Source of the DNA: Candidatus Latescibacterota bacterium
GTDB taxonomy: Bacteria; Latescibacterota; UBA2968; GCA-2709665
NCBI GenBank assembly: GCA_965222075.1
Contig: OZ244937.1
Span: 4,704,001-4,768,000 of the forward strand
Direction: 5' to 3'
DNA: 64,000 nucleotides
Under the pieces are notes generated by a model. That model saw only the letters and a list, made by a program, of their open reading frames with translations. It had not been told where the DNA came from and made no database searches. Below, piece after piece: positions 48,398 to 64,000 of the stretch (position 1 is the stretch's first letter; each line of letters starts with the position of its first letter). A program made the translations under genes and the position numbers.

Positions 48398-48434
48398 ACC
48401 CATCTCCCTTTCGTTCCGCAATCCGCAATTTCCC

Positions 48435-48463
48435 TTGACAGTTCGAACCGGTTTATGTATTTT
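48435..48463 (+). promoter_or_regulatory. sigma70-type promoter of tRNA-Thr
   Basis: TTGACA-N17-TATTTT with an extended TG. Confidence 0.7.
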
Positions 48464-48509
48464 ATATCCACCCATCTTGAACAATAATGGCCTGTTTTTT
48501 CTTACTTTA

Positions 48510-48585
<76 letters not shown>

Positions 48586-48588
48586 CTT

Positions 48589-48630
48589 AAAAAAGGGCTT
48601 GTGTCTGTCCTACACAAGCCCTTTTTCTTT
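48589..48630. terminator. Bidirectional Rho-independent terminator
   Basis: AAAAAAGGGCTTGTGT...ACACAAGCCCTTTTT between the convergent tRNA and transaldolase genes. Confidence 0.85.
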
Positions 48631-48647
48631 GCCCCACCTACCCTCCT

Positions 48648-49316
48648 CTACGCCACCACGCCCTCTTCCTGCTTCTCCTTCCAGGCATTCCAATCGCTCA
48701 AGAAACGCTCCAGTCCCGCATCGGTCAACGGGTGGGTCAGCAGCTTCTTCAACACGTCCGGCGGCAGTGTGGCCACATCGGCCCCCGCCAGCGCCGCCTC
48801 CACCACGTGCAGCGGACTGCGCAGGCTGGCCGCCAGCACCTGGGTATGAAACCCGTAGTTGCCATAAATCTTCTGAATTGTCCGTACCAGATCCATCCCC
48901 ACGTGTCCGATATCGTCCAGCCTCCCCAGAAACGGGCTGATGTAGCTCGCCCCGGCCTTGGCCGCCAGCAGCGCCTGGTTTGGAGAGAAGCAGAGGGTCA
49001 CATTCGTCCGGATCCCCTCCTCGCTGCAGGCCTTGATCGCCTTGAGCCCGTCCGGTGTAATCGGGATCTTCACCACCACATTCTCGTGGATACTTGAAAT
49101 ATGCCGTGCCTCCTCCACCATCACCTGCCATTCTGTGCCCACCACCTCTGCGCTCACCGGTCCGTCCACAATCTCACAGATTGTCAGAATGATATCCTCA
49201 AACGTGCCTTCCTCCTTGGAAACGTGGGTCGGATTTGTCGTCACCCCGTCCAGCACGCCCATGGCATTGGCCTCACGGATCTCATCCAGATCGGCGGTAT
49301 CGATAAAAAACTTCAT
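48648..49316 (-). CDS. fsa: Transaldolase / fructose-6-phosphate aldolase (TalC/Fsa family)
   Basis: [40 protein letters not shown] and HPLTD. Confidence 0.93.
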
Positions 49317-49449
49317 CTTCAGCCTCCTCCTTGTGAACGTTTGTGGGGGAGCTGTTAGATTGATGAATGGAAGCCTGGTTATCCTTCGGCTTGTTTTCCT
49401 CTCCACTGCTCTTGGCAGATTTGGCAATCCAGGCCGGGCCAGGGATTTG

Positions 49450-50493
49450 TTAAAAAACGCGCTCAATCAGAAAGCTGCACATTTCTCTCAGGATCTCCCG
49501 GGCCTCCGAGGGCGGAATCTGGTCCAGATAGGCCTCGGCGCCCTGTGCCCGCTTCAGGCATTCCTCCTCTGTCCTGACAATCGACCCGTAACGCTCCATC
49601 AGGGCAATGGTCCACTCGATCTCTTCAGAGGCGACTTCTGATCGTTCCTGGTCTAAAATCTCCCGCACCCGCCGCTGTTCCTCCGGCGCGCATCGGTGAA
49701 AAAGGTCGATCACCATCAACGTCCGCTTCCCCTCTGCAATATCTCCTCCCCGCTCTTTGCCGTATCCACCCGCTGTTGTCGTGGGCGCCGTAGACGCATC
49801 TTCGGCACAGACCATCAGGTTCAACAGGTCGTCCCGGATCTGAAACGCCACGGCCATCGCCTCGCCGAAGTCCCCGATTGCCTGCTTCTGATCCTCCGAT
49901 GCCCCTGCAATAATCGCACCCGCCGTGCAGGGCCCCCGGCCGCTGTACCACCCCGTTTTCAGCCGCAGCATCTCGATAAACGCTTCGGCTTTAGGGATCT
50001 CCTCCGCCTCAATCCACCCGATGTCATAGGCCTGTCCCTCAAATGTCAGGCGCGCCCCTCGAATCATCTCCTGAAGCAGATCAAGCGTGGTCGCATCTCC
50101 CAGAATTTCCCGGTTATCCGCCAGAATTTCAAACACCTTGGAGTAAAGCGCATCCCCCACATTAATGCTGAGCGGAATCCCGTGCAGCCGGTGAAGACAG
50201 GGCTTCCCCCGCCGCATCTCCGACCCATCTTCAATATCGTCGTGGATAAGCGCGAACGAGTGAAACATCTCAAAGGCCGCCGCCGTACGCAGGGCCGCCT
50301 CCTTCTTTCCCCCCAGGGCCTCACACGCCAACAGCACCAGCACCGACCGGAACCGTTTCCCCCCCCGGATCGGGTAGTCTCGCATCGGTTCGTAGAGAAA
50401 GGCGTGGGGCTCCGCCTCGGGCAGAAAGGAAAACATCTCCGCGTTGATCAACGGTACATTTTCTTCAAGGAACGTCTTTAACCTTGTTTTCAC
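49450..50493 (-). CDS. Polyprenyl diphosphate synthase (short-chain GGPP-synthase-like)
   Basis: GGKRFR; [15 protein letters not shown]; GQ..D; KT; [13 protein letters not shown]; DIAEGKRT. Confidence 0.9.
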
Positions 50494-50515
50494 GGAATCC
50501 CTTCACATTACGCCT

Positions 50516-52981
50516 TCACTTCCTGAATCCCCTCACCTTCTTCCGAATCTTCGCCTCAACATTGGCCGGCATCGGATGGACCGGAATCGGAGCGGAGGCA
50601 TCCGACTGGACCGACGCGGAGACAGGATCGTCCCCTAAGGTCACCTCAGCCACCAAACGCGGCCGCTTTGGAATATAAGCCTCTCGCTCCAGCAGGGCGT
50701 AAAGCAGAACCAGCGCCGCCTCTTTGTCCGGGATCGTCCCCTGCGTCCCACCATCGTCTCCCATAGGCGGCAGCGGCGCCCCCACGCACGAGGGGCACCC
50801 CTCCTCGCACCCGCACTCGGAGACCACCATCAAGCAAGCGGCGACCACTTCCTCCATCATCTCGTAAACTTTTTCGGAAAACCCGACCCCCCCCGGATGC
50901 CGGTCGTACACAAACAGGGTGGGACGCCCCGTATTCGAGCTGTCGATCGTCGTTCCAATATCCGTCACGTCACACATTGCAAATAAAGGGATGACCTCGG
51001 CCAGCACATTGGCAATCCCTTTCAACCCATCCGACGGCACCCGTCCAAACTCCCGGCAGCGGCGCAGCGCATCCGCAGGGGGAATCAACCAGCATCCTGC
51101 TGTATCCAGGGCGATCGAAGGGAGATCCAGATTTTCCCAGCCAATGCTGTCCCGATCCTCAAACTTCACCTTTTTGAACATCATCACCAAGGTCGAGACA
51201 GACACCTCGCCAAAACAGATCCGGCTCACCCGCCAGCCCGACTCCATCTCGGTCTCATTTACCCGAATCGTGGTCTTGTCAACTGCCTGGGTGTAGTAAT
51301 CCAGCCCCTGCTGGCTGACCCTGGCAACCTTTCGTTCCACATCCAGCACGTCCACAAAATAGGTCTGTGCATTGTGCATGTACACCGCATGGGTATGCAG
51401 CTGAAAAAAGGCGCTGATCTCATCCAGCGTCCCAATCACCTCCGGCCCGTCATCCCGTTCCACAACAATCGTATATGTCGGATCGCTGATGTTGCGCAGG
51501 CTCACCTCGGCCGCCGGATAGCCCGACCGGCTGTAGTACCAGCGTCCACCAATCTGCCTCGCCTGCCCCTCCTCCTCCAAGATCTCCAGCATGGCCCCGG
51601 TAAACTCCCCCACCATCTCCCCTTCTTCCCCCCGGACCGGCAGTTCCCGCAGGGCACACCGGAGGTGCCCTACCGCCACGTGGGGGTTGTTCGGATCGAT
51701 CGTCGCGTGTTCTGGAGACTGCCCGAAGAAGTAGCCCGGGTCGCGCATCAGGAACTGGTCGATAGGCGCATTGTGGGCAATAAAAACCGCCAGAGACTCA
51801 TCGGCCTTTCGTCCCGCACGCCCCGCCTGCTGCCACATACTGGCGATCGTTCCTGGATAGCCCACAACCAGAGCGGCATCCAGCCCCCCGATATCGATCC
51901 CCAGCTCCAGCGCATTGGTGCTGACCACCCCCAGCAGTTCCCCTTCAAACAGCATTCGCTCGATCTCCCGCCGCTCGGTGGGCAAGTACCCGCCCCGGTA
52001 AGCCCGGATCGCCCGGGCCAGTTTGGGCCCTACCCGCGAAAGATCCTCCTGGCAGTAGTGGTAAATGACCTCCGCAGTGGTCCGGGCGCGTACAAATGCA
52101 ATCGTCTGCACCCGCGCCTGAATCAGCGTTGTCAGCAGCCACCGGGCCTCCGTATTGGAACTGCGCCGGTCGCTGGTGCTCCCCTCTAAGAAGGGGGGAT
52201 TCCAGAAAACGAAACGCCGCGCCCCACGGGGCGACCCGTCGTTGTCAACCAGCGCCATCCCCCGCCCGGTCAGGCCCTCGGCCAGCTCCTTGGGATTGGC
52301 AATGGTGGCCGAACTACAAACAAACTGAGGGTCGGCGCCGTAATGCACGCAGATTCGGCTCAACCGGCGGATCACATTGGCCACATGGGACCCGAACACC
52401 CCCCGGTAGGTGTGCACCTCATCCAGGACCACATAGCGGAGATTCTGAAAAAACCGCGCCCAGCGAGGATGGTTGGGCAAAATGCCCTGGTGTAGCATAT
52501 CGGGATTTGTAAGAATCACCCGCCCCTCTTCCCGAAGCCGCCGGCGCAGATTGGGCGGAGTATCTCCATCATATGTTCCCGACATAAATTGCAGCGCCGG
52601 GGCCATTTCTCCGAACCGGAGCAGCCCCCGGGCCTGATCCTGCGCCAGCGCCTTGGTGGGAAAGAGATAGAGAGCCGTGGCTTCCCCATTTAAAATGAGC
52701 GCCTCCAGCGTGGGAATCTGGTAACAGAGGGTCTTTCCGCTGGCCGTGGACGTAACCACCGTTACGTGCGCGCCGCCCCGCAGCGCGGTCAGCGCCTCTG
52801 CTTGGTGGGTGTAGAGCCGCTCGATGCCGAGTTGGCGGAGGGCATCGGTCACGGTCGGATGCAGATCCCCCTCAACACTGGCAAACCGGGGCTCTCGGAC
52901 GGGCATAGACTCAACATGAGCGATCTGCCCACCGTAGTCGTACGCGTTTCGGATCTGACTGAGAAACCGTGCAAAATCCAT
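50516..52981 (-). CDS. DEAD/DEAH-box helicase with DUF1998 (MrfA/Hrq1/SftH family)
   Basis: TASGKT, PTKALAQDQ, DEVH, SAT, TNALELGIDIG, QQAGRAGR and C-terminal CGCEEGCPSC. Confidence 0.92.
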   Translation of the reverse strand: MDFARFLSQIRNAYDYGGQIAHVESMPVREPRFASVEGDLHPTVTDALRQLGIERLYTHQAEALTALRGGAHVTVVTSTASGKTLCYQIPTLEALILNGEATALYLFPTKALAQDQARGLLRFGEMAPALQFMSGTYDGDTPPNLRRRLREEGRVILTNPDMLHQGILPNHPRWARFFQNLRYVVLDEVHTYRGVFGSHVANVIRRLSRICVHYGADPQFVCSSATIANPKELAEGLTGRGMALVDNDGSPRGARRFVFWNPPFLEGSTSDRRSSNTEARWLLTTLIQARVQTIAFVRARTTAEVIYHYCQEDLSRVGPKLARAIRAYRGGYLPTERREIERMLFEGELLGVVSTNALELGIDIGGLDAALVVGYPGTIASMWQQAGRAGRKADESLAVFIAHNAPIDQFLMRDPGYFFGQSPEHATIDPNNPHVAVGHLRCALRELPVRGEEGEMVGEFTGAMLEILEEEGQARQIGGRWYYSRSGYPAAEVSLRNISDPTYTIVVERDDGPEVIGTLDEISAFFQLHTHAVYMHNAQTYFVDVLDVERKVARVSQQGLDYYTQAVDKTTIRVNETEMESGWRVSRICFGEVSVSTLVMMFKKVKFEDRDSIGWENLDLPSIALDTAGCWLIPPADALRRCREFGRVPSDGLKGIANVLAEVIPLFAMCDVTDIGTTIDSSNTGRPTLFVYDRHPGGVGFSEKVYEMMEEVVAACLMVVSECGCEEGCPSCVGAPLPPMGDDGGTQGTIPDKEAALVLLYALLEREAYIPKRPRLVAEVTLGDDPVSASVQSDASAPIPVHPMPANVEAKIRKKVRGFRK

Positions 52982-53081
52982 GCAGGAGGCAAGAGAAAAA
53001 AGCGTGGAAAAGGCAGGAGGAGGCTGGGGAAAGCATCTATCACACAATATAGTCGGAAGGCCCGCCCCGGTCAACTTATTT

Positions 53082-54083
53082 TCACAAGCATAAATTGCAC
53101 ATTGTCCATCCTCCCACCAGAAGGAGGCATCCAACTTTCAATTTCTTATATGCATCAAACACGATCTGCAAATCCCTTTTCGCCCTGGAGAAATCCGAAT
53201 AAGGCCTCCTGGACCTATCCCCCAGACAACGGAGAAAATCCTGGATCATCCCGTGATATCCCATCATGTCTTTAAATCCCGGGAAAAACAGCCCGGATCT
53301 CCCCTTTGCGTTTAAAAAAACGTAGATCCCGTTGTTCTCAAACGTAATGCTACCCTTTTTGCCCAGAATATGTGAATGCTGCAGGATGCCTTTCGTCAGG
53401 CTTCTTGTATTCCAGGAATATTCCAACGTTGCCCGCGAACCATCCGGATATGCCAGTGTGATAACCGAATGCCGCTCCGCTTCTCCTTTTTGACAATGGG
53501 GAAACCTGGCGCAGACGCTTTGGGGAGCACATGCAAAAAAATCGGAAAGCAGCGCCACGAAATGAATGCCCCCTTCCAGCAGTGCCCCATACCGGCTCTT
53601 CCAGCCCGAAGCGGCCTGGGTAAAAAGCTTCTTCACGGCAACAGATTCAATATCGCCGATAACATCATCCTGGATAAGCGCCTTTATTTTTGCCAGCGAC
53701 GGCTTGTAATAGTAATTTTCTGCAACCATTAAAAATCCGTCTGGCTTTCCTCTTAAAGCGCTTTCAACTTCATCGACCTCATCCTGCGAAACGCACATCG
53801 GCTTTTCAACCAGAACGGCCTTTCCCGCTTCTAAGGACTGAACGATCTGTTCCTTGTGAAATTCAGGGGGAGATGCAAGCACCACAGCGGTAATTTCGGA
53901 GGACGCCAAGACCTGGTCAAGACGGTCAAAAATACCACCTCCCCCAAATGCATGGTTAAATTTCTCGGCACTGCTCCTTGACCGGCTGTAGAAAAACAGA
54001 TCGACCAAACCGGACAGACGCCTGGCATGCACGCCGCCGATGGTTCCGCAACCGACCAGACAGATCTTTTCCACACGATTCAC
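53082..54083 (-). CDS. Gfo/Idh/MocA oxidoreductase
   Basis: LVGCGTIG, GKAVLVEKP and GALLEGGIH. Confidence 0.88.
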   Translation of the reverse strand: MNRVEKICLVGCGTIGGVHARRLSGLVDLFFYSRSRSSAEKFNHAFGGGGIFDRLDQVLASSEITAVVLASPPEFHKEQIVQSLEAGKAVLVEKPMCVSQDEVDEVESALRGKPDGFLMVAENYYYKPSLAKIKALIQDDVIGDIESVAVKKLFTQAASGWKSRYGALLEGGIHFVALLSDFFACAPQSVCARFPHCQKGEAERHSVITLAYPDGSRATLEYSWNTRSLTKGILQHSHILGKKGSITFENNGIYVFLNAKGRSGLFFPGFKDMMGYHGMIQDFLRCLGDRSRRPYSDFSRAKRDLQIVFDAYKKLKVGCLLLVGGWTMCNLCL

Positions 54084-55582
54084 CCAAACGCGTCCTGTAT
54101 ATAATCCGCAACCCGCAGTGCATTGGCCGCAATCGTCAGGCTCGGATTAACCCCGCCCGGGGAGGGCATAAAACTCCCGTCCAGCACGAACAGATTGTCG
54201 ATTCCCCAGAAGAGGCAGTTTTTGTCTAAAACGCTTTCCTTTGGGTCATTCCCAAAACGCAGCGTCCCCACCGCATGGGAAAACGAATCCAGATTGTAAG
54301 CATAAGAGAGTATGCCTCCGGCCTGTTTCATAATCCTCTTGGCTTTATCCACCAGATAATCTCTGCGCTCACAGTCCCTGGACGAGTATTGGTGGACAAC
54401 TTTGACAATCTCCAAACCGTACACATCGATTTCTGATGACAGGCCGACCGCATTGTCAAAGCTTGGATCATCTTCCGCAATACAGAGCACGTTCTGGATA
54501 CATCTTTCCAGCAACGCCACCAGATGCTTAGCGCCTCTTGGCGCATAATGTTTCAATACGTTGGATGAAGGCGTGCGAAGATCCTGTATAATGCCCGTGG
54601 AACTGCCGTATTTTTTTCGGAAATCTTCATAAAAATCCGTCAGACAGACCTGTTTGTGAAACGTATTGTCCGGATTGGTCTGAAAAGGAAAAACCGTGGC
54701 GACAGTGGCATTGCAGTGCCGCATCAGAAATTTGCCGATGAACGTGTGGTTCTCATATTTCTCTAAGTGTGAGCGCAGCAAAATGGCCGGACTGTGGATT
54801 GCGCCTGCGCTGAGAACCACAACCGTCGCAGAAAGCTCGAACGTCCGTTTTGCGCTTTGGTCAATACACACTACGGAGGTAATTTTACCGTTTTTCTCGA
54901 CAAAGCGCTTAACAACAACATCCGGCATAATCTCAAAATCAAACGCCTGGGCCTTCCGTAAAATCGTCGTGGTCAAATCGTTCTTGGCTTCAATTTTACA
55001 GGGATGTCCGTCACAGGTAAGACACTTTATGCACACCGTTCTGGACGTATTGGTAAAATTGATTGCTAAAGGAATCTTAAAAGGCCTGTACCCCAGCTTG
55101 CGGGCTGCTCTGTCGATCCGAATGGCGGGCAGCGTGAGGTCTATGCTCTTAAACGGATAATCTGTTGAACGCGCCGGTTCGTAAATATCCTGTCCCGCTT
55201 CCCCATGAACCTCAAGCAGGTGTTCGGATTTACCGTAATACGGTTCCAGATTCGTATAACGGATCGGCCATGTCGCGAAATCATTTTCGCGCAACCTCAG
55301 CGATGCGCCGCCGTAAAAAACCGACATCCCCCCGACAACCTCATTCGGGTAAACCGCTTTAAAATCATTATCATTATACTGCTTAACAAAAATAGGAGAC
55401 TTACCCTTATATCTCTGCTTGAGGAGTATCCTTTCCTGGTCCCAGTCCAGGGCATCTCTCTTGGCCCGGTTTCCGCGCTCTACCAAAAGCGTTTTCAAAC
55501 CCGCTTTTGCAAGAGAATAGGCGGCGGCCGAGCCCCCAAACCCTGAGCCAACGATAATGGCATCAAACTGAGTTGACTTCAT
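54080..55582 (-). CDS. GMC family FAD oxidoreductase
   Basis: IVGSGFGG, VGGMSVFYG, CIKCLTC, HAVGTLRFG and NPSLTIAANALR. Confidence 0.9.
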   Translation of the reverse strand: MKSTQFDAIIVGSGFGGSAAAYSLAKAGLKTLLVERGNRAKRDALDWDQERILLKQRYKGKSPIFVKQYNDNDFKAVYPNEVVGGMSVFYGGASLRLRENDFATWPIRYTNLEPYYGKSEHLLEVHGEAGQDIYEPARSTDYPFKSIDLTLPAIRIDRAARKLGYRPFKIPLAINFTNTSRTVCIKCLTCDGHPCKIEAKNDLTTTILRKAQAFDFEIMPDVVVKRFVEKNGKITSVVCIDQSAKRTFELSATVVVLSAGAIHSPAILLRSHLEKYENHTFIGKFLMRHCNATVATVFPFQTNPDNTFHKQVCLTDFYEDFRKKYGSSTGIIQDLRTPSSNVLKHYAPRGAKHLVALLERCIQNVLCIAEDDPSFDNAVGLSSEIDVYGLEIVKVVHQYSSRDCERRDYLVDKAKRIMKQAGGILSYAYNLDSFSHAVGTLRFGNDPKESVLDKNCLFWGIDNLFVLDGSFMPSPGGVNPSLTIAANALRVADYIQDAFG

Positions 55583-56363
55583 AGATATAGAGCACAATCA
55601 AACCTGCGATGATCACCCAGGCCAGGTAGTGAAATCTCTCGCGTGTGTCGATACACGCCTGAATCTTGGGCAAATCGGGCTTGAATTTTCCGGATATGGT
55701 TCGCTGAACATACGTCTTGTAATATTCAACCAGAAATCTCTCCAGCCCGCCGTTCATATAAATCAGATAGCCCAGGGGGACGGGTGTCAGTGGGTTGTCC
55801 ACAAAGTAGAACAAAGGCGAACATACCGCCAGGACTAAGGCCGACCTTTGAAACTTCAACCACTTGAACCCTTCAAAGGGCGCGTCTTTATAAGCCCCGC
55901 CCAACCCCATGAGCAGTCCGGATAAATAAGCCGCAATCAGGAAATCGGTAAAGCTCTGCATCTTGAGGTCAATAAACAGCAAACAGAAAACACCGATAAT
56001 CAGAACCGCGCCGGCGCCGTATCTTAACAGATCGCTCCCTACATAATTCCCCAGAAATGTGATCCTCGAAGGGACGAAGTATTTGGACTGGTCTTCGGTT
56101 CTGAAAAACCCCTTGTAGAGTTCGGCGATAAACCGTTCAAGCCCCATAATCAGGAAAAAGATCTGGAACAGGCCCAACTTTGAAAAGCTGTCCTGAAAAA
56201 AGGGCAGGTAGTAAAGCAGAAGAAAAATGACAATGTGGAAATAGACGCTTCGGGGGAACGTCCTGAGTTTCAACCCTTCATAGGGCGAATCTTTGAAAGC
56301 GCCCCAAAAAGAGGTATACAGTCCGGAAACGATACTTAGGGTTAAGAGAATAAATAGATTCAT
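55563..56363 (-). CDS. Integral membrane protein of unknown function with internal duplication
   Basis: Multiple hydrophobic segments; two copies each of GA[FY]KDxP[YF]EG and GLERF. Confidence 0.75.
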   Translation of the reverse strand: MNLFILLTLSIVSGLYTSFWGAFKDSPYEGLKLRTFPRSVYFHIVIFLLLYYLPFFQDSFSKLGLFQIFFLIMGLERFIAELYKGFFRTEDQSKYFVPSRITFLGNYVGSDLLRYGAGAVLIIGVFCLLFIDLKMQSFTDFLIAAYLSGLLMGLGGAYKDAPFEGFKWLKFQRSALVLAVCSPLFYFVDNPLTPVPLGYLIYMNGGLERFLVEYYKTYVQRTISGKFKPDLPKIQACIDTRERFHYLAWVIIAGLIVLYIYEVNSV

Positions 56364-56639: not shown

Positions 56640-59105
56640 CTAATCCACAGCCTGGACAGCCTGTTCTTGGGCCTCCCCGTACCTTGCCTGCTCCTTTCGG
56701 CTTCGGATATCCTCCAGAACCTGCAACAAAGCCGGAAGCACAACAACCGCCGCCACGAAACAGGTCAACAGGCCGATGAGTGCCAGCTTTCCGATCGAAT
56801 TCAACCCCGGATGTGTGGCCATCGTCAGCCCGAAAAATCCGACCATCGTCGTGAGCATGGAGACCAGCATGGCGCCGCCGGTACTCTTGAGGATCAGCGG
56901 TATCGACTGGGCGCCCTCTTCCCGATACCGGTGGTAGAGATGTACGCCGTTGTCGATTCCCATTCCCATAATAGTTGGCAGGGCCACCATATTGTAGAAA
57001 TTCAGCTTCATGTCCGTCAAATACATCGTCCCGCACATCCAGACCGCCCCGCAGACCAGTGGCAGCACCACAAGCAGGGCCTCCCGGAGGCCCCGGAAAT
57101 CAATGACGACAATCAGAAAGACCACCACCAGCGTGATGCTAATCGCCCACTTGCTGTCCCGCAGCATGAGCCGCAGCATATCCGCAAAAACAATACTCGG
57201 ACTGGAGGAATAGAACGTCTTACCCGACGTCGTCCGGATTTCCTCGGAATCGTCGGCAAAGGCCATCGCCTTTTTTCCGTCCCTGAGCTGCACCTTCGGA
57301 TAGATAAAGGCAAAATGCGCCCGGCTGCCATCTACCGTAGAGAACTTGCGCAGGATATTTTTCGGCAGATCGTCTATGGACAGCGCCTCTACACCCAGCA
57401 GTTCGCGCAAATCGTCCAGCCGTTTTTTTTGCTCCCCCTTGATCAGCTTGGCGCCCTCCCCATCGGCCAGTTCCCGGATCTCTCCAATAACCGCAAGTTT
57501 CTCACCCTGCTGCTTGGGGATCGCAGACCAGAGCGTTTTGATTTTATCGATCGTCGGTGTCGGATCGTCCGAAGCAATCTTGGCTTCCACTGCCGTTACA
57601 ATCTCACCCAGCTCCTCTTCGCTGTTGGCCAACACCACGCTGGGGGATTGGGATTCCTGATTAAACTGCGAAATCGTACTGATTTTATTCTTCACCGCCC
57701 TTGAGGCCGGCAGATTCGACCTCAAATTGGTAAAATCGTATTCAAACGAGATCCGGTGTAGATTGGCCCCCAAGTAGACCGTAACAGCCACCCCCGCAGC
57801 CAAAACCAGCCGGGCCATCGGGAACCGCCCCCGATGGCTGCCCCAGGCATGCCCCCAGACCGGGCGCATCCGGATCAGCCCCAGCTTCTTGTCCGCAAGC
57901 ACAAGAAAGGCCGGAAGGACGGTAGTCATGGACACCAGCGACATCAAAATCCCCGTCCCTACAATAAATCCGAACTCAGAAAACCCTTTAAAGTCGGTAA
58001 TGGTAAGCGAATAGAAAGCCATTGAAGTGGTCAATGCCGCGGTCAAAATGGCCTGGCCCGTCTGCTTGAGCGTCGTTTCGATGGCCAGCAGGACATCCAT
58101 CCGGGCAATCCGGTCTTCTAAGTACCGGGCAAACATGTGGATGCCAAAGTCGACCCCCAGCCCGAACAGGATGACAAACAGAAAGCCGGTCATCGTATTT
58201 AGATTGCCGATCACCCAGTAGGTAATCGTAAAGGCCCAGAACAATCCCATTGTCAGGGGAAGGGCCACAAAAAAAACCGCCAGGGGTTGACGGAAATAAA
58301 GGGTTAAAAGAAGCACCACACCCACCACGCCGTAAATCAGCGTCGACTTGATATCGTTTAGAATAACGTTAAAGTCATCAATTTTATTCTTGAAAGTTCC
58401 CCCGTACTCGATCACCATGTCCGGGTGGTAGGATTGGGGATGCAATTTGGTCACGGCCTGGCGTACGGCGTTATACATCTCCTTGCTAAACCCGATATTG
58501 CTCACTGTTCCCGCTGCCATTACTTCCAGAGCCAGAATCGTACTGTCCGTGTTTATATAATAGGGCTCCTCCGTCGTTTCCCCGTTCTCCTTGTATTTCG
58601 TTTCGATATCCGAAAAGTCGAGGCTCTCTTCACCATCCTCATCCAACTGGATGTAAAGGGGCGACAGCTTCGCCTTCTCCTGAATAATCCGCTCATCAAT
58701 CCGAAAGTGTATCTCCTCCAGATCTTCCAGGTCCATGTAGAGCAGGGCGTGATTCTTAAAAAAATCGATGTCCCGTTTATGGTCGACATAATTCACATAT
58801 TGCCCGTAGGCATCTCCCTCCAGCTCTCGAGCCAGGTCTTCGGCAAATCGTTTGGAACACTCGTAATCCTCACACTCCACCAGAACAATCAGGCTGCCTA
58901 CCCCGCCAACGCGCTCTTTGATGTCCTCTAAGGTTTTAATGCTATTGTAGTCTTTGGGTATCAGCGCAGCAATATCGGTCTCCAGCCGATAGACCAGACG
59001 GTAGACATAATAACTACAAAAAATGGTAAGTAAACTCGATAGAAAAATAATACTCAGATAGCGCCGATAGACAACTCTTGAAAGAAAACTGAACCAGGCC
59101 TGCAT
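56640..59105 (-). CDS. MMPL/RND family lipid transporter (HpnN-like)
   Basis: Two TM bundles carrying GLGVDFGIH and GMGIDNGVH, with large periplasmic loops. Confidence 0.9.
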   Translation of the reverse strand: MQAWFSFLSRVVYRRYLSIIFLSSLLTIFCSYYVYRLVYRLETDIAALIPKDYNSIKTLEDIKERVGGVGSLIVLVECEDYECSKRFAEDLARELEGDAYGQYVNYVDHKRDIDFFKNHALLYMDLEDLEEIHFRIDERIIQEKAKLSPLYIQLDEDGEESLDFSDIETKYKENGETTEEPYYINTDSTILALEVMAAGTVSNIGFSKEMYNAVRQAVTKLHPQSYHPDMVIEYGGTFKNKIDDFNVILNDIKSTLIYGVVGVVLLLTLYFRQPLAVFFVALPLTMGLFWAFTITYWVIGNLNTMTGFLFVILFGLGVDFGIHMFARYLEDRIARMDVLLAIETTLKQTGQAILTAALTTSMAFYSLTITDFKGFSEFGFIVGTGILMSLVSMTTVLPAFLVLADKKLGLIRMRPVWGHAWGSHRGRFPMARLVLAAGVAVTVYLGANLHRISFEYDFTNLRSNLPASRAVKNKISTISQFNQESQSPSVVLANSEEELGEIVTAVEAKIASDDPTPTIDKIKTLWSAIPKQQGEKLAVIGEIRELADGEGAKLIKGEQKKRLDDLRELLGVEALSIDDLPKNILRKFSTVDGSRAHFAFIYPKVQLRDGKKAMAFADDSEEIRTTSGKTFYSSSPSIVFADMLRLMLRDSKWAISITLVVVFLIVVIDFRGLREALLVVLPLVCGAVWMCGTMYLTDMKLNFYNMVALPTIMGMGIDNGVHLYHRYREEGAQSIPLILKSTGGAMLVSMLTTMVGFFGLTMATHPGLNSIGKLALIGLLTCFVAAVVVLPALLQVLEDIRSRKEQARYGEAQEQAVQAVD

Positions 59106-59115
59106 CGATTAATCC

Positions 59116-59736
59116 TTACCCTTTCCCGTCGTTACTTTTACAGCTCAACTTATTTTTCAGCTTCCGGACAAGAGATTCGTAGGAGTTCTTTCGAATCTCT
59201 TTATAAAACTGAGACCGGTTGTTCCGGGAAACCCGCAAATCGTCGATCACCATATCATAAATCAGCCATTTGCTATCCATCAGGTGAAATTTGTAGTCAA
59301 TCGTACTTTGCTCACTCTTGTAATACACCACCGTCTTTACGAGGGCATCCGCCCCATTCACCTCAGCACCAATATAATCAATTTTCTCGGATTTGGTATA
59401 AAGTTTCGGATCCGCGTAATTCTTCTGAATCAGGCGTCTGCACAGATCCGTGAACTCTGTCTGTTCCTCCTCGGTCCGTTCCTTCCAATAACGCCCCAAC
59501 GACAGTTCGCTGAACCGTCTAAAATTGAAGAGATCGCCGATGATCGCCTTCAACTGCTTCCGTTCGGCCTCGGTCTGCCCCTCCGTCTTGGAACGAACGA
59601 TCTCCTGGATCGAGCGGTCTCGGGCCTTCATCATCTCAAGCAGCGCCTCTGCCTGGCCCTCGTTCGACGCTGCCCCAACAGCCGCAGTGCCCCCTGCAAA
59701 AATCGCAAAAACAGCAAGTCTTCCAATCCACTTCAT
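59116..59736 (-). CDS. MlaC/Ttg2D (HpnM-like) periplasmic lipid-binding protein
   Basis: Signal peptide; FSELSLGRYW; WLIYDMVIDD..VS.NNRSQF. Confidence 0.88.
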   Translation of the reverse strand: MKWIGRLAVFAIFAGGTAAVGAASNEGQAEALLEMMKARDRSIQEIVRSKTEGQTEAERKQLKAIIGDLFNFRRFSELSLGRYWKERTEEEQTEFTDLCRRLIQKNYADPKLYTKSEKIDYIGAEVNGADALVKTVVYYKSEQSTIDYKFHLMDSKWLIYDMVIDDLRVSRNNRSQFYKEIRKNSYESLVRKLKNKLSCKSNDGKG

Positions 59737-59850
59737 GTCCGATTTCCTCATAATTTGTACGGACGTCAGAATCGCCACCCAACCTTGCTCCATAGGACTG
59801 TTGAAAGCAACAAAAGTTCCAGTAACCCCTTGGTCTATCCAAAGCCTCGA

Positions 59851-61317
59851 TCAGTCTGCTTTTTCAGAGGCCAGCTTCTCCGTCTCCTCCTGGTTGGAAA
59901 CGGTTGTGGGCCATACCCCTCGGGTCCGCAGCATATGCCCCGAATATCCGAAGATCGCGGTCACAACCAACCCCGACCCAATGGTAAAAATCCAGTAAAT
60001 TGCGTCTAAACAGTTGGCCAGAGCCAGAACGCAGAAAAGAGCGGCAAAGAAGTCCCGCCTGCAAGCGAATTTGAGCGAACAGAACACCCGGTGAAACCCC
60101 CCCCGTTTTTCCTGCGGCACCTCTTCCGAAAAGGCCATGTTGAAACTCACGATGCTGCCCGAACCGATATTCTGCAGGTAGAGTAAGACCAGCGAGACGG
60201 CCAGGATATCCAGCGCCAGGACCACCCATCCCAGCGTCAGGATGTACGTCTCGCCCGTCAGCCGATACATGCCATAGATCACACCGATAAAAAAGGCCAG
60301 ATAGGAAATATTATCCCCCAGGGTATCCAACCACTCACCCCTGCGCGATCCCATAAACTTCAGCTTGGCAATCTCCCCATCGCAGCCGTCCGCAATCGAG
60401 GCGAACTGGAAAAGCAGCCCCCCCATCGCCAGCCGCAGGTAGTCCCCCGAAGCCACCCACCAGGCCGCTAAGAAGCTGATACACAGTGTTGCCAGCGAAA
60501 TGTGGTTCGGCACAACCGGGGTGTTCACAAGCAGGCGGGTGATCCGCTTTGAGATCTTCCGGTTGAAAAACCGGGACACAAACCCGTCGGTCGGTCTTCC
60601 CAGCATGCAGAACAGGGCCTGTTCCGCATGCCGGAGAGATTCGGGGGTATCCACATCCAGCCAGAACAGATCTCCCACATCCACCGCACGCATTTTTCCC
60701 TCAGACGCCAGTTCCCGGATGCCGCTGGAAAGGGAATCGTCGCCGGCCGCCACCAAGCGCTCCAGCGCCTCAAACAGGTAGGGGCTGCACAGAAAAAGCC
60801 CGGTATCCACAGCATTGTAGGAACCCAGGCCTTTGCCAATCTGAAGAATCCGGTCTCCCTCTAACGTGACCTTTGTGGCGTCGTCTATATCGAAAATGGC
60901 GTCGAGCCGAGAATCCACGCAGAGAACGGCTTCATCCCCGCCAACCGGCATATTCCGAAGCCTGGCCAAGGCCTGCGGGTCGAACAGGTGATCCGACATC
61001 AGCAAGAGGAAGGGCTCGTTGACGCAGTCCCGGGCCTTGAGGACCGAACGTCCGTTCCCCAATTCCCACTCCGGATTCTCCACCCAGTCGATGTGTACAT
61101 CCACCTGAGGGTCGGACGCAATCGCTTCCCGGACCTCCTGCCCCCGGAAGCCGGTAACGATCACAAACTCCCCGATGCCCGCCCGCTTTGCCAACAGGAT
61201 GGTCCGCTTGAGCAGGCCGACCCCGGCGACCTTAACTAAGGGTTTGGGCAGATCCGCCCCGTTTCCGTTTAGACGGCTACCCCTGCCAGCGGCAATAATC
61301 ACAGCCTTCTTGACCAT
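59851..61317 (-). CDS. Bifunctional NTP transferase / CDP-alcohol phosphotransferase (IPCT/DIPPS-like)
   Basis: AAGRGSRL, PKPL, MSDH, DATKV, VDTG and WLDVDT, followed by DGFVSRFFNRKIS, PN and DGCDGEIAK..GEWLDTLGD. Confidence 0.9.
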   Translation of the reverse strand: MVKKAVIIAAGRGSRLNGNGADLPKPLVKVAGVGLLKRTILLAKRAGIGEFVIVTGFRGQEVREAIASDPQVDVHIDWVENPEWELGNGRSVLKARDCVNEPFLLLMSDHLFDPQALARLRNMPVGGDEAVLCVDSRLDAIFDIDDATKVTLEGDRILQIGKGLGSYNAVDTGLFLCSPYLFEALERLVAAGDDSLSSGIRELASEGKMRAVDVGDLFWLDVDTPESLRHAEQALFCMLGRPTDGFVSRFFNRKISKRITRLLVNTPVVPNHISLATLCISFLAAWWVASGDYLRLAMGGLLFQFASIADGCDGEIAKLKFMGSRRGEWLDTLGDNISYLAFFIGVIYGMYRLTGETYILTLGWVVLALDILAVSLVLLYLQNIGSGSIVSFNMAFSEEVPQEKRGGFHRVFCSLKFACRRDFFAALFCVLALANCLDAIYWIFTIGSGLVVTAIFGYSGHMLRTRGVWPTTVSNQEETEKLASEKAD

Positions 61318-61492
61318 ATCCCTCCCTTTCTTAACCTCTCATCGTCCTGAACAGTCCTGATCCCATATCTCGAATCCCACAGGTCGTTCGTCCCTGGCGC
61401 GAAATCAGAAGCAATGAGAGTCCGGCGAATTGTCAACGGTTTACGAAATGATCGGTACGTCTTCCAGGCGCTCCTCTTCAATATCACGGCAA

Positions 61493-62779
61493 TTACTGCC
61501 TCGTCTCCTGCCTGGAGGGTTGCCCGGTATAGGAGTCCATTTTCTTTGCGGTGTCCGCATAGGCCTCAACGGCGATAAAGCGCTTGTTTCCGTTCGCCGA
61601 CCACACCACAATATCGTCGTAGTCTGCTTCCGCCTCTGTTTGCGTGGCGTTGGCATCTGTCAGAATACCGATACCCACCACGACCTTTGGCGGCACCTTG
61701 CCCCAGAGCCGTTTGAAATCCTCGTACAGATTCACCTGTTGGGTGACCCATTGCCCGAGCTTCTCCGGCCCGCTCTGCAAGACCACCACCTTGGGCCGGG
61801 CGATCAGCTTCCGGTCTGCGACCGTGTCTATGGGTAGCGATGTACTCCACACGTACTTGATCTGCGTTGGAATGCCCAGAAAATTTCGTGAATAGACGAT
61901 ATAGATACCGGCCGCACTGTCGTTGATCTCCCCGTAGCGCTCGTCCGCTCCCTCCGGAAGCTTCCAGACCCGCCAGCGCCAGGTCAGGATCGGGTACTTG
62001 TGCAGGTCCCACGAAAGCGGTCTGTAAATAGCAGGAGAGGTTCGATTGTCTTGGGCATGGAGGTAGTGGTTGCCATCCTCCTCAACAACCGTATAGACCT
62101 TGTCAACATTGTCCCGATCCTTCTCCCGCCATTCGCTCCAGCCATTCGCCAGGGCGCCATTGTGTCCGTAGGAGAAATCTTCCAGTACAATATATCCCTG
62201 GTTGGCTACCTCTGCGACGAGGGCACTATACGCCTGCTTGCGGAGAAACTTGGCCAGGTCACGATAGGCCTTCACCAGTCCCTTCTCGTCCACGCTCATA
62301 TCGTGTATCAGCCATTGTCCTCTAAAACGCCGGAGCTGGCAATAAACCTCCAGGATCCCACCGGACTTGAAAGGCACCAGGAGCCGCACCCTGGCCACAT
62401 GCTGCTTCTCCTCAATCCCTTCAACGGTAATCCCGTCGAGTCGATACCCCGGCACACGCTCAAGCAGATCCTCCGTCAGCCGATTGGCAAACACGTCGAT
62501 AAACTGTTTTCGTTCCTCAACCGTAATCTTGTACCAACGCTTCTTTAAAATCGCCTGCCCCGTCCCTATAAAATCAAACGATGCCAGCAAGAATCCGCCC
62601 ACAGCCTTCCGCTTCTGGGCCACGGCCTCCCGGTTTAGGCTCTCCCCAAGGGCAGTCACATACCCCTCGACTGCTTTCGACGATGAAGACGGCTCTGCAA
62701 AGATGTGTCCGGGAAGACAGACAAGGGTAAGAACAAGCCAAAGAAATGTCATATTGCGCAACATATCGTTCCTGTTCAT
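61493..62779 (-). CDS. Secreted MlaC-like + DUF3047 fusion protein
   Basis: Signal peptide; MlaC-like half (FDF..ILKKRW..WLIHDMSVD); DUF3047 half (PILTWRWRV..GADER..DSAA..IKYVWS..ILTDAN). Confidence 0.8.
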   Translation of the reverse strand: MNRNDMLRNMTFLWLVLTLVCLPGHIFAEPSSSSKAVEGYVTALGESLNREAVAQKRKAVGGFLLASFDFIGTGQAILKKRWYKITVEERKQFIDVFANRLTEDLLERVPGYRLDGITVEGIEEKQHVARVRLLVPFKSGGILEVYCQLRRFRGQWLIHDMSVDEKGLVKAYRDLAKFLRKQAYSALVAEVANQGYIVLEDFSYGHNGALANGWSEWREKDRDNVDKVYTVVEEDGNHYLHAQDNRTSPAIYRPLSWDLHKYPILTWRWRVWKLPEGADERYGEINDSAAGIYIVYSRNFLGIPTQIKYVWSTSLPIDTVADRKLIARPKVVVLQSGPEKLGQWVTQQVNLYEDFKRLWGKVPPKVVVGIGILTDANATQTEAEADYDDIVVWSANGNKRFIAVEAYADTAKKMDSYTGQPSRQETRQ

Positions 62780-62789
62780 TATGTTTTCC

Positions 62790-64000
62790 CTACTCCACAA
62801 TAGAATGCCCTGTCGCCTTCTGCAACGCTGCCCAGGTCCGATTGAATTCAAAGATATTGTGATAGTGCTTGGCCCGGATGATGCCGTATTCCTTCACAGC
62901 ATCGATCAATTCACTCGCCTCTTCCAAGCCGGCATTAAACCCATCCCGGGCCGAAATAAACCAGCGCCGGGTCGCCTTAACGGCCTCATTGGACGCCGCC
63001 ACATTGGCCTCGGCCTCTCGAAGCGTCCGATAGATCTTTTCTACCTCCAACTCCGCCCCCTTTTGGGCCAGGCTTACCTGATAGACCAGCTTCTGATGTT
63101 CCAACCGGGCCTTCCTCACCCTGGCCGAAGTTCCTGCAAACGAAAGGTTCTGTCGGATACCCAGGATTGCCCCTCCCTGAAAAAAGTTGAAATCGTCCCG
63201 TGCAAAGGGGCTTGTGATGTCATCCCGATTAGGCGCATAGCTGTATTTGAGCTGCCCCCCTAGAAAGAACTGCGGAAAATAGCTGCTTCTCTCTGCCTGC
63301 ACCAGTGCTTTCCTTACCTCAATCCCGGCCCAGAGCTGCCTGAGGTCTGCCCGTCTCTCAGCCTGCCGGACATAGTCCTCCAACGGAAGAATCTCAACCT
63401 CCAGGGGCCTGAGGCGCTCCTCAACTAAGGCAATCGAGTCCGTGCTCGACAGGTCCAGAAGCATCCGAAGCGCCGAAGCCGCCAGCGCGCTTCCCTTTTC
63501 AACCTTATTGGCGTTTTCTTCCACATCGTAAACAAACCGATCCAGACGCGCCAGATCGGTATAGGTATACTCCCCGGTGTCCTCTTCCAGCCCCTCTTCA
63601 ACGTTGTTTCGGGCCTTCCGGATCTCTTCTTGCGCCTCTTCGGCCAATCTCCAGAGCTCCTTCGTCAACAGCCGAAGATAGTAGGCCTCCGTTACCTGCA
63701 GCTCGAGATCCACCTGGGTCTTCTGCAACCCAGCGCGCCGGACGTTCCTCCCCCCTTTGGCGGCATCTTGCGCAGCTTTGAGCTTCCCAAAGGTATAGAT
63801 CGGCTGAACCAAAGAGGCCTCTGTCCGGGTAAACACGCTCAAGCTCCAAAGGTCAGTATCTCCCACCAGCGCATTTCCCCGGGCCTTTGGAGAAGGCCCT
63901 ACAATCCACGTAAAATCAAATTTGGGCAGCAAACGGGCCGCTCGCGCCTGAGCCAGCTGCGCCTCTGCAATGCGCACGTCTACCTCTGCGGCCCGAACCG
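62790..64000 (-). CDS. TolC family outer-membrane protein (5' truncated by the window edge)
   Basis: LVQPIYTFGK, VTEAYY, RRADL and YFPQF, with the two-repeat OEP pattern; the frame is open to the window end. Confidence 0.88.
   Translation of the reverse strand, partial: VRAAEVDVRIAEAQLAQARAARLLPKFDFTWIVGPSPKARGNALVGDTDLWSLSVFTRTEASLVQPIYTFGKLKAAQDAAKGGRNVRRAGLQKTQVDLELQVTEAYYLRLLTKELWRLAEEAQEEIRKARNNVEEGLEEDTGEYTYTDLARLDRFVYDVEENANKVEKGSALAASALRMLLDLSSTDSIALVEERLRPLEVEILPLEDYVRQAERRADLRQLWAGIEVRKALVQAERSSYFPQFFLGGQLKYSYAPNRDDITSPFARDDFNFFQGGAILGIRQNLSFAGTSARVRKARLEHQKLVYQVSLAQKGAELEVEKIYRTLREAEANVAASNEAVKATRRWFISARDGFNAGLEEASELIDAVKEYGIIRAKHYHNIFEFNRTWAALQKATGHSIVE

Follow-up and report, generated by a model that had tools for sequence, protein, structure and literature searches.

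A gene set in a “Ca. Latescibacterota” genome points to a candidate lipid route between the two bacterial membranes

Six co-oriented genes of an uncultured marine “Ca. Latescibacterota” bacterium form an operon whose sequence points to a candidate lipid route between the two bacterial membranes. The operon encodes, in order, an HpnL-like protein, a TolC, an MlaC-DUF3047 protein, a cytidylyltransferase/CDP-alcohol phosphotransferase fusion, a second MlaC, and an HpnN-like MMPL transporter (Table 1). The window, i.e., the whole stretch of DNA analyzed, comprises 64,000 nucleotides of contig OZ244937.1. In our preferred reading, which we consider about evenly balanced between right and wrong, synthesis of a CDP-inositol-derived glycerolipid is combined with HpnLMN-like, adaptor-less three-part transport, TolC occupying the slot of MlaA or HpnS; for this, we infer the cargo, the direction, and the contact between TolC and MlaC.

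Table 1. Genes of the operon, with positions in the window unless a locus is named
Product	Length	Position	Strand	Family match
HpnL-like/LPG_synthase_TM	345 aa	L002:326-1363, beyond window	minus	PF03706 E 1.4e-33
TolC-family outer-membrane factor	468 aa in full	62790..64000 in window; L001:10790-12196	minus	PF02321 OEP/TolC E 1e-33
MlaC + DUF3047	428 aa from ATG at 62779	61493..62779	minus	Pfam MlaC 5e-13, DUF3047 6e-37
IPCT-like cytidylyltransferase/class I CDP-alcohol phosphotransferase fusion	488 aa	59851..61317	minus	Pfam NTP_transf_3 + CDP-OH_P_transf
MlaC/HpnM-like periplasmic lipid carrier	225 aa	59116..59793	minus	PF05494 E 1e-30
MMPL/HAE-3 RND transporter, HpnN/BstA-like	821 aa	56640..59105	minus	Pfam MMPL 1e-41

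An earlier note on this DNA had described five co-oriented genes, and inspection of open reading frames (ORFs) together with Pfam confirmed the position, strand, and family of all five. The gaps between them, from TolC through MMPL, are 10, 175, 57, and 10 bp. TolC is truncated by the window end, its full ORF starting 196 bp further out, and the HpnL-like gene lies outside the window, 129 bp upstream of TolC. The 20 kb past the window showed neither an adaptor nor mlaFED, which might have explained TolC and MlaC independently (ORFs judged from translations, with five Pfam-scanned).

Gene order, whose lack of conservation the earlier note had named as grounds for abandoning its proposal, was conserved: TolC-enzyme-MlaC-MMPL occurs in 22 of 27 loci of close relatives and the other five are cut by contig ends, so the order is not due to chance. 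The MlaC-DUF3047 gene is dispensable, as such a fusion is absent from all 22 four-gene loci of these relatives. Throughout the phylum, TolC and MMPL have almost the same distribution over families (134 and 136, respectively, of 168 genomes) and are ≤12 kb apart in 112 of the 133 genomes having both; the remaining 21 have them on different contigs (19 genomes) or far apart on one contig (2 genomes). The distant family f4, with an MMPL 41 to 45% identical, has TolC-DUF3047-MlaC-MMPL in all 12 loci with upstream DNA, 10 of which also contain a different NTP transferase, a CDP-alcohol transferase (28 to 36% identical), and an LPG gene. The nearest match of this in-operon NTP transferase is LicC rather than IPCT, indicating that the head group is not constant. 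CDP-alcohol pathway genes recur near module genes in L151, L176, L037, and G343, the last of which has TolC-MlaC, DUF3047, INO1, IPCT, and MMPL within one ~25-kb region. The module adjoins Spt-like, GNAT, and epimerase genes in L190, and some relatives are flanked by glycosyltransferase and polysaccharide genes.

The route had been presented as dedicated and strictly outward, a description that found no support: TolC-MlaC is far more widespread as a unit and elsewhere accompanies other genes, including mlaEFD and those for fatty-acid degradation. TolC directly precedes mlaC in 20/20 loci of the phylum of G003 and 20/20 of that of G001, the TolC subfamily occurs in single copy and in association with mlaC across three phyla, and 26 of 28 metagenome loci of at least 8 kb contain MlaC. 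In G003's phylum, TolC-MlaC is followed by a phosphodiesterase gene, often with ETF and acyl-CoA dehydrogenase genes, and is once preceded by mlaEFD; MMPL stands alone there (0/20 loci with any module gene), and the MMPL search matched 2 of 20 genomes of G002's phylum. Locus L105 has the order mlaE-F-D-TolC-MlaC. Such neighbors would fit inward lipid salvage. In families f3, f13, and f14, TolC-MlaC is not linked to MMPL (0/9), with no enzyme beside TolC in the eight of these nine loci inspected, and the transport genes occur without the enzymes in G147 and in L038, a locus labelled Calditrichaeota.

The TolC of the window represents a separate subfamily, in whose alignment an R-x4-N/S-P-F-x2-D loop is conserved (a strict pattern matches only 47 of 84 subfamily rows). 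The subfamily profile gives it 557 bits, versus 129, 75, and 45 bits for the other three TolCs of the genome, each of which adjoins its own adaptor and AcrB-type pump. The locus departs from tripartite RND-MFP-TolC efflux systems, having no adaptor and no AcrB-type (HAE-1) pump but an HAE-3/HpnN-like one. It also departs from canonical Mla, in which mlaC accompanies mlaFEDB and MlaA is present: the mlaE-mlaF-mlaD operon is ~3.3 Mb away and contains no mlaC, and MlaA was found in 0/132, 0/74, and 0/151 genomes (0/357 in total; controls positive), including genomes without a window-type TolC. As the only two MlaC genes of the genome are in the operon, the MlaC pair may also serve the distant MlaEFD. 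Given its neighbors elsewhere, TolC-MlaC may also serve inward traffic. The mlaEFD-tolC-tamB operon of Veillonella parvula (PMC10665443) similarly places tolC in a lipid-trafficking operon without mlaA, but it lacks MlaC, its long MlaD spans the envelope, and the available text assigns TolC no role there. Two apparent TolC fusions, P0315 (MMPL then TolC) and P0289 (LPG_TM then TolC), were rejected as single sequences that are probably read-through of neighbors; P0315 retains a signal-peptide-like stretch ahead of TolC, and P0199 (PEPCK then TolC) shows that such artefacts occur.

The likely role of the fusion enzyme is to add inositol phosphate to a lipid of the membrane. Its best NCBIfam model is IPCT/DIPPS (NF041135; 249 bits, under the cut-off of 580), and its two-domain fusion and intact catalytic Asp motif (D-x2-D-G-x2-A...G-x3-D-x3-D) are those of IPCT/DIPPS, with D310, D313, G314, G327, and D335 invariant across 120 homologues. 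The N-domain was indeed IPCT-like, as had been suggested: it shares 47 to 48% identity with the IPCT encoded next to INO1 in Rhodothermus, IPCTs are its top structural matches, and it falls in one clade with the Rhodothermus IPCT (SH-aLRT 95; 50 rows kept of 92 after removal of near-duplicates) in a tree that, like the others used here, was a quick IQ-TREE run without bootstrap. The closest solved structure, Archaeoglobus fulgidus IPCT/DIPPS (4MND; E 1.5e-50, 29% identity, model TM 0.71/0.83), shares the two-domain fusion, fold, and Asp motif, whereas at the place of RDxR, the acceptor-site motif of DIPPS, our enzyme has RDFF, preceded by a longer stretch, instead of RDER (AfDIPPS) or RDFR (AF2299). 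The C-terminal alignment on which this rests is weak for 4MND (3.6 bits) but anchored on the RD of both 4MND and AF2299. Of 120 homologues, 111 have F and none has R where the second Arg would be, which argues against soluble di-myo-inositol phosphate (DIP). Arg residues of the corresponding pocket bind inositol phosphate in PIP synthases, as described in PMC4634129. The modeled ~6 membrane helices are as in soluble-acceptor enzymes, and the 3 to 4 extra helices of eukaryotic lipid-acceptor enzymes described in the same source are absent from the model, a count that speaks against a lipid acceptor.

A homologous fusion had been claimed for Rhodothermus, but CDP-alcohol transferase, INO1, and IPCT are three separate genes there, in an operon described in PMC4587543. 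The transferase (311 aa), a BEPIS candidate identified from gene order alone, is 27 to 28% identical to that of the fusion over a short stretch and falls in a separate clade of a quick tree. The Rhodothermus marinus INO1-IPCT-BEPIS pathway (Jorge et al., as cited in PMC4587543 and PMC9246714) resembles the proposed one in its CDP-inositol head-group donor and related IPCT; it differs in its INO1-adjacent operon with stand-alone IPCT, whereas in ours IPCT is fused, INO1 remote (1.6 Mb from the operon), and the transferase not orthologous to BEPIS. The alternative inositol-lipid cluster of Bacteroides vulgatus (PMC9246714) also uses a CDP-inositol donor, and an LPG-synthase-like gene is nearby in Bacteroidetes. 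In both clusters the genes are separate and beside INO1, and the text available describes no transport genes. INO1 lends no specific support, since it is present in 159 of 168 genomes, including those of families without the module, and the genome also encodes a separate PIP-synthase-like protein.

Ceramide, suggested as one acceptor, is unlikely in this genome judging from its gene content: its two AOS enzymes score above the cut-offs for BioF and Kbl, and a bCerS-like query found 0 of 61 relatives in a search containing no positive-control genome. A sphingolipid pathway (Spt, bCerS, CerR) was rejected, as neither Spt nor bCerS was found. An MMPL gene in the Caulobacter sphingolipid locus was not confirmed in PMC9393093.

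The transport proteins resemble those of hopanoid trafficking. MMPL, with GxGxD motifs (D319 and D718), has HpnN as its best NCBIfam model (347 bits, below the cut-off of 752) and as its closest solved structure by sequence (5KHN; E 2.5e-34); MlaC scores 50 bits against HpnM (TIGR03481, cut-off 160), and the upstream protein, a putative flippase, has HpnL as its best model (TIGR03476; 151.8 bits, cut-off 195.65). In the Hpn set (PMC12324291), an LPG_synthase_TM protein, an MlaC-like shuttle, and an HAE-3 RND pump are likewise clustered with lipid synthesis genes, and an inner-to-outer-membrane route has been proposed. Here, however, all three proteins score below Hpn cut-offs, TolC fills the outer-membrane slot of the MlaA-like HpnS, which was not found in the genome, and the only squalene-hopene cyclase match is a 116-position partial C-domain in a 491-aa ORF; hopanoid cargo was rejected for lack of this cyclase. 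Campylobacter jejuni Cj1371-Cj1373 (bioRxiv 10.64898/2026.08.28.747810) similarly combines MlaC and an RND pump with mlaEFD elsewhere, and outward lipid transport has been hypothesized, but it uses MlaA, and the available text contains no occurrence of TolC and describes no head-group enzyme. The BstABC sterol transporter of Methylococcus capsulatus (PMC11713862) also unites an MmpL-family pump, periplasmic carrier, outer-membrane protein, and lipid synthesis operon; it differs in that BstB is PhnD-like, BstC is a TRAP-T lipoprotein, and the cargo is sterol. In the AF2 model of MlaC-DUF3047 (pLDDT 75.5), Foldseek matched Ttg2D/MlaC (E 8e-9) and, for the second domain, ciliary-protein and CBM4/11/16/28 beta-sandwich folds (E about 4e-7 to 1e-4); as modeled, DUF3047 is a carbohydrate-binding-module-like beta-sandwich.

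In the proposed mechanism, INO1, encoded outside the operon, would supply inositol-1-phosphate, from which the N-domain, given its homology and tree position, would make CDP-inositol. The membrane domain would transfer inositol-phosphate onto a neutral glycerol-based lipid alcohol, candidates being diacyl- or dialkyl-glycerol or a glycolipid hydroxyl. The product might then be flipped by the HpnL-like protein, a guess, and loaded onto MlaC by MMPL, driven by the proton gradient, on the model of HpnN/HpnM and of the MlaC-RND hypothesis for C. jejuni. Gene linkage suggests that MlaC would deliver to the specialized TolC in the MlaA/HpnS slot, and we guess that a lectin-like DUF3047 could read the polar head. 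A broader scenario, to which we give somewhat less than even credence, is that a TolC subfamily was turned from an efflux duct into a lipid port for MlaC, replacing MlaA in several phyla: paired with MMPL it would deliver specialized lipids outward (CDP-inositol-derived here, probably ceramide in L190), paired with MlaEFD it would salvage lipids inward, and DUF3047 would be a head-group-reading lectin.

TolC-MlaC(-MMPL) might instead be a housekeeping, possibly two-way phospholipid route also serving the remote MlaEFD, with the lipid-making enzyme merely a co-regulated neighbor and no dedicated cargo. The location of both MlaC genes, mlaEFD without mlaC or mlaA, the L105 order, neighbors that vary by lineage, and the dual use proposed for the C. 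jejuni system in the preprint cited above are consistent with this, yet CDP-alcohol pathway genes are kept in the operon in two orders despite differing enzymes and reappear near module genes in L151, L176, L037, and G343, and we regard the explanation as rather unlikely. That TolC is an ordinary efflux duct with an adaptor encoded elsewhere is hardly credible: it has the TolC fold and the genome has three adaptor genes, but every one of these has its own TolC and pump, and the subfamily is tied to mlaC in three phyla.

Other readings concern the enzyme. The architecture could be as proposed with a head group other than inositol, e.g., derived from glycerol, choline, or a phosphonate, as the LicC-like enzyme of f4, the score far under the IPCT/DIPPS cut-off, and an unlinked INO1 accounted for by the PIP-synthase-like gene would allow; the clustering of the N-domain with INO1-adjacent IPCTs and its structural matches make this quite improbable. 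It is very unlikely that the enzyme makes a soluble compatible solute in the manner of DIPPS, or decorates a glycan, and has no relation to the transport genes. The equally fused 4MND, the ~6 helices, and the polysaccharide genes around some relatives agree with such a role, but the second RDxR Arg is missing from all 120 homologues and the enzyme gene sits between TolC and mlaC in 22/22 complete close loci.

Because its parts and RND-MlaC logic have precedents, we regard the operon as a variant and not as a new class of machine. Outer-membrane delivery of non-LPS lipids is unsettled, above all in phyla with MlaC and without MlaA, and the operon offers a compact testable set of enzyme, pump, carrier, and outer-membrane partner. 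A physical TolC-MlaC link would imply a lipid-transfer role for a TolC-fold protein without an adaptor and would suggest what DUF3047 and HpnL-type proteins do, along with a new RDFF-type acceptor specificity among CDP-alcohol phosphotransferases.

In four sponge metatranscriptomes of one study, parts of the operon are matched at ≥99% identity by short contigs of low depth, two of which cross the MlaC/MMPL junction; DNA carry-over is possible in each case. Downstream of MMPL, genes for a 266-aa membrane protein, a GMC oxidoreductase, and a Gfo/Idh/MocA protein follow in families f1/f2 only and were excluded from the system.

The source genome (G000) is a single 5.36-Mb contig (C1) with 97.6% completeness, of which the window covers positions 4704001-4768000. 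Five minus-strand genes claimed in the earlier note were confirmed by open reading frame and family checks: TolC, MlaC-DUF3047, a fusion of NTP transferase and CDP-alcohol phosphotransferase ("the enzyme"), MlaC and MMPL, separated in that order by 10, 175, 57 and 10 bp. TolC is completed past the window end (468 amino acids), and a sixth operon gene, 129 bp upstream and outside the window, encodes an LPG_synthase_TM protein whose top model is HpnL (151.8 bits versus a cut-off of 195.65). The nearest solved relative of the MMPL protein is HpnN, and both GxGxD motifs are kept. In the available text of PMC12324291, HpnL belongs to the LPG_synthase_TM family, HpnM is MlaC-like, HpnN is an inner-membrane transporter and HpnS is MlaA-like; the operon therefore mirrors hpnL/M/N but has TolC in the hpnS position. 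Hopanoids were rejected as the cargo because no squalene-hopene cyclase was found in the source genome. The predicted model of MlaC-DUF3047 comprises an MlaC/Ttg2D domain and a carbohydrate-binding-module-like sandwich, and DUF3047 recurs next to operon-type MMPL or TolC-MlaC in several lineages; the domain is named in one paper among the matches listed. The source genome also has a stand-alone DUF3047 gene (see table).

Gene order proved to be conserved and the operon real. Among 27 loci of close relatives (MMPL ≥66% identical), 22 have the order TolC-enzyme-MlaC-MMPL and the remaining five end at a contig boundary; the MlaC-DUF3047 fusion occurs only in L011, and the LPG_synthase_TM (LPG) gene lies within 10 kb in five of the 22. 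Of 168 genomes across the phylum, 136 have MMPL and 134 have a TolC of the subfamily, with nearly identical family distributions, and where both have coordinates (133 genomes) they lie ≤12 kb apart in 112, on different contigs in 19 and far apart in 2; these counts are not independent, as the genomes are kin. In family f4, all 12 loci with upstream DNA contain TolC-DUF3047-MlaC-MMPL (a locus cut by a contig end and a second MMPL paralogue lacking the module were left out), and 10 have, in addition to the LPG gene, both an NTP transferase and a CDP-alcohol transferase, the latter sharing 28-36% identity with its window counterpart. The f4 NTP transferase is closest to LicC, in a separate clade from the N-domain of the window enzyme; the link to a head-group-activating pathway thus outlasts enzyme change, and the f4 head group may differ from that of the window operon. 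Several arrangements count against a fixed unit: LPG-TolC-DUF3047-MlaC with MMPL elsewhere in f3 (3/3), TolC-MlaC separate from MMPL in f13 and f14, and a module without the enzymes in one genome (G147). Many f4 loci hold extra NTP transferase genes that run divergently from the operon, and two of these genes group with IPCTs (cytidylyltransferases making CDP-inositol), and some hold a second CDP-alcohol-transferase-like gene.

The operon TolC falls in a subfamily that shares a conserved loop (47 of 84 rows fit the strict pattern) and is distant from solved outer-membrane factors (best E, 8e-16). In the phylum of G003 (labelled Deltaproteobacteria), the subfamily is single copy in 69 of 74 genomes, and mlaC directly follows TolC in all 20 loci fetched from these 69. 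The next gene usually encodes a phosphodiesterase (by Pfam for L105 and by an N-terminal signature in at least 17 further loci), often followed by TetR, ETF and acyl-CoA dehydrogenase genes. MMPL stands alone there, with no module genes beside it in 20/20 fetched loci. In the phylum of G001 (a genome labelled Rhodothermus sp.), the subfamily has matches at E 1e-45 in 45 of the 151 genomes sampled, including 34 with strong matches, and TolC and mlaC adjoin in 20/20 fetched loci, all drawn from strong matches; the pair runs on into DUF3047-MMPL in L142 and L143, and G343 has TolC-MlaC, DUF3047, INO1 (inositol-1-phosphate synthase), IPCT and MMPL within about 25 kb. Cultured Rhodothermus or Balneolaceae strains also have this TolC-MlaC pair. 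Of 51 metagenome loci collected by loop motif, 49 passed the profile filter, and MlaC is present in 32 of these, including 26 of the 28 of ≥8 kb. In locus L190, MMPL is divergent from TolC-MlaC-Spt-like-GNAT-epimerase; the top model of the Spt-like protein is serine palmitoyltransferase (439 bits, under the 640 cut-off), and L185 and L189 have the same aminotransferase. Only TolC plus MlaC is constant; the partner in the inner membrane and the enzymes encoded next door differ between loci.

In fold and architecture, the enzyme matches A. fulgidus IPCT/DIPPS (DIPPS, di-myo-inositol phosphate synthase domain), with a family-model score under the cut-off, and its catalytic Asp motif is intact. 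Its N-domain is 47-48% identical to, and grouped in the tree with, the INO1-adjacent Rhodothermus IPCT. The homologous Rhodothermus fusion cited in the earlier note did not materialize: Rhodothermus-type genomes encode the transferase, INO1 and IPCT separately, as in the R. marinus operon described in the available text of PMC4587543, and their transferase is only distantly related to that of the window. Ceramide, also suggested as acceptor, is unlikely because the two AOS enzymes of the source genome are BioF and Kbl and a search found no bCerS-like gene. NTP transferase, CDP-alcohol transferase, HAD, INO1 and LPG-like genes form a cluster proposed for Bacteroides inositol lipids (PMC9246714, available text); a similar set occurs in G003.

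CDP-inositol would be the donor and a lipid the acceptor, and the product would pass outward from MMPL to MlaC to TolC; we give this whole chain an even chance. A general two-way route shared with distant MlaEFD is the likeliest alternative, yet an unlikely one. In L105, mlaE-mlaF-mlaD precede TolC. MlaA was found in 0/132, 0/74 and 0/151 genomes of three groups (positive controls matched); this is no more than compatible with TolC in the MlaA position, because genomes without the subfamily TolC lack MlaA too. Ordinary efflux through TolC is very improbable; the three other TolCs of the source genome score far lower on the subfamily profile, and all three are encoded beside an adaptor and an AcrB-type pump of their own.

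A soluble product, as the A. fulgidus likeness might imply, is doubtful. AfDIPPS RDER and AF2299 RDFR align to RDFF in the window, and the second Arg position of RDxR is Phe in 111 and Arg in none of 120 homologues. Arg residues in this pocket hold inositol phosphate by its phosphate and correspond in alignment to an acceptor-specificity motif of CEPT1 (PMC4634129, available text). The RDxR Arg is presumably one of these, and the acceptor would be neutral, probably a lipid alcohol. Eukaryotic lipid-acceptor enzymes have extra helices (same text), whereas the window enzyme does not. A head group other than inositol is slightly less doubtful than a soluble product, though still improbable. INO1 is present in the source genome but near-universal in the phylum (159/168), and it could serve a separate PIP-synthase-like gene.

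The operon is real and conserved, and would encode a new form of RND-shuttle-outer-membrane lipid transport. RND-MlaC coupling has already been proposed for hopanoids (PMC12324291) and C. jejuni (bioRxiv 10.64898/2026.08.28.747810), in the available text of each. A search of largely open-access literature returned no TolC-MlaC partnership and no such operon among the matches listed; the comparison drew on the available text of PMC10665443, PMC11713862, PMC8277102, PMC9393093 and two bioRxiv preprints. Atlas matches to a 266-amino-acid membrane protein encoded beside the operon were only clusters without names. Its gene forms an overlapping trio with GMC oxidoreductase and Gfo/Idh/MocA dehydrogenase genes, and the trio comes after MMPL in most f1/f2 relatives.

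Coordinates of neighbouring and related features
Feature	Location	Strand	Remark
266-aa membrane protein	window 55563-56363	minus	internal repeat; no Pfam match
GMC oxidoreductase	window 54080-55597	minus	
Gfo/Idh/MocA dehydrogenase	window 53082-54083	minus	
Ceramidase-like, transaldolase-family, polyprenyl synthase, DEAD/Zn helicase genes	window 47165-53134		
Second DUF3047 gene	L221:6833-7702 (source genome)		apart from module
PIP-synthase-like gene	G000:C1:4046907-4047491 (L252:6907-7491)		stand-alone; orthologue adjoins INO1 in f3, f9
CDP-alcohol transferase, probable HAD, NTP transferase-LPG_synthase_TM fusion, INO1	L061:3917-9367 (G003)		in a row; resembles Bacteroides alternative inositol-lipid cluster
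Extra f4 genes	L073:4333-5067, L077:4821-5546, L068:1732-3675		NTP transferase/CDP-alcohol-transferase-like
TPR + FG-GAP + ASPIC/UnbV protein	L073:14633-17884 and others		1070-1120 aa; after MMPL in most f4 loci
TolC-MlaC + alkaline-phosphatase-family phosphodiesterase, often TetR/ETF/acyl-CoA dehydrogenase	L105-L124 (phylum of G003)		candidate lipid-salvage operon
Unannotated protein	L128:8392-9507, L133:8448-9473, L142:8366-9394		330-370 aa; most Rhodothermia loci have it after TolC-MlaC; nothing matched in Pfam at 1e-4
Candidate locus for making and exporting ceramide	L190:5119-13280		also L185, L186, L189
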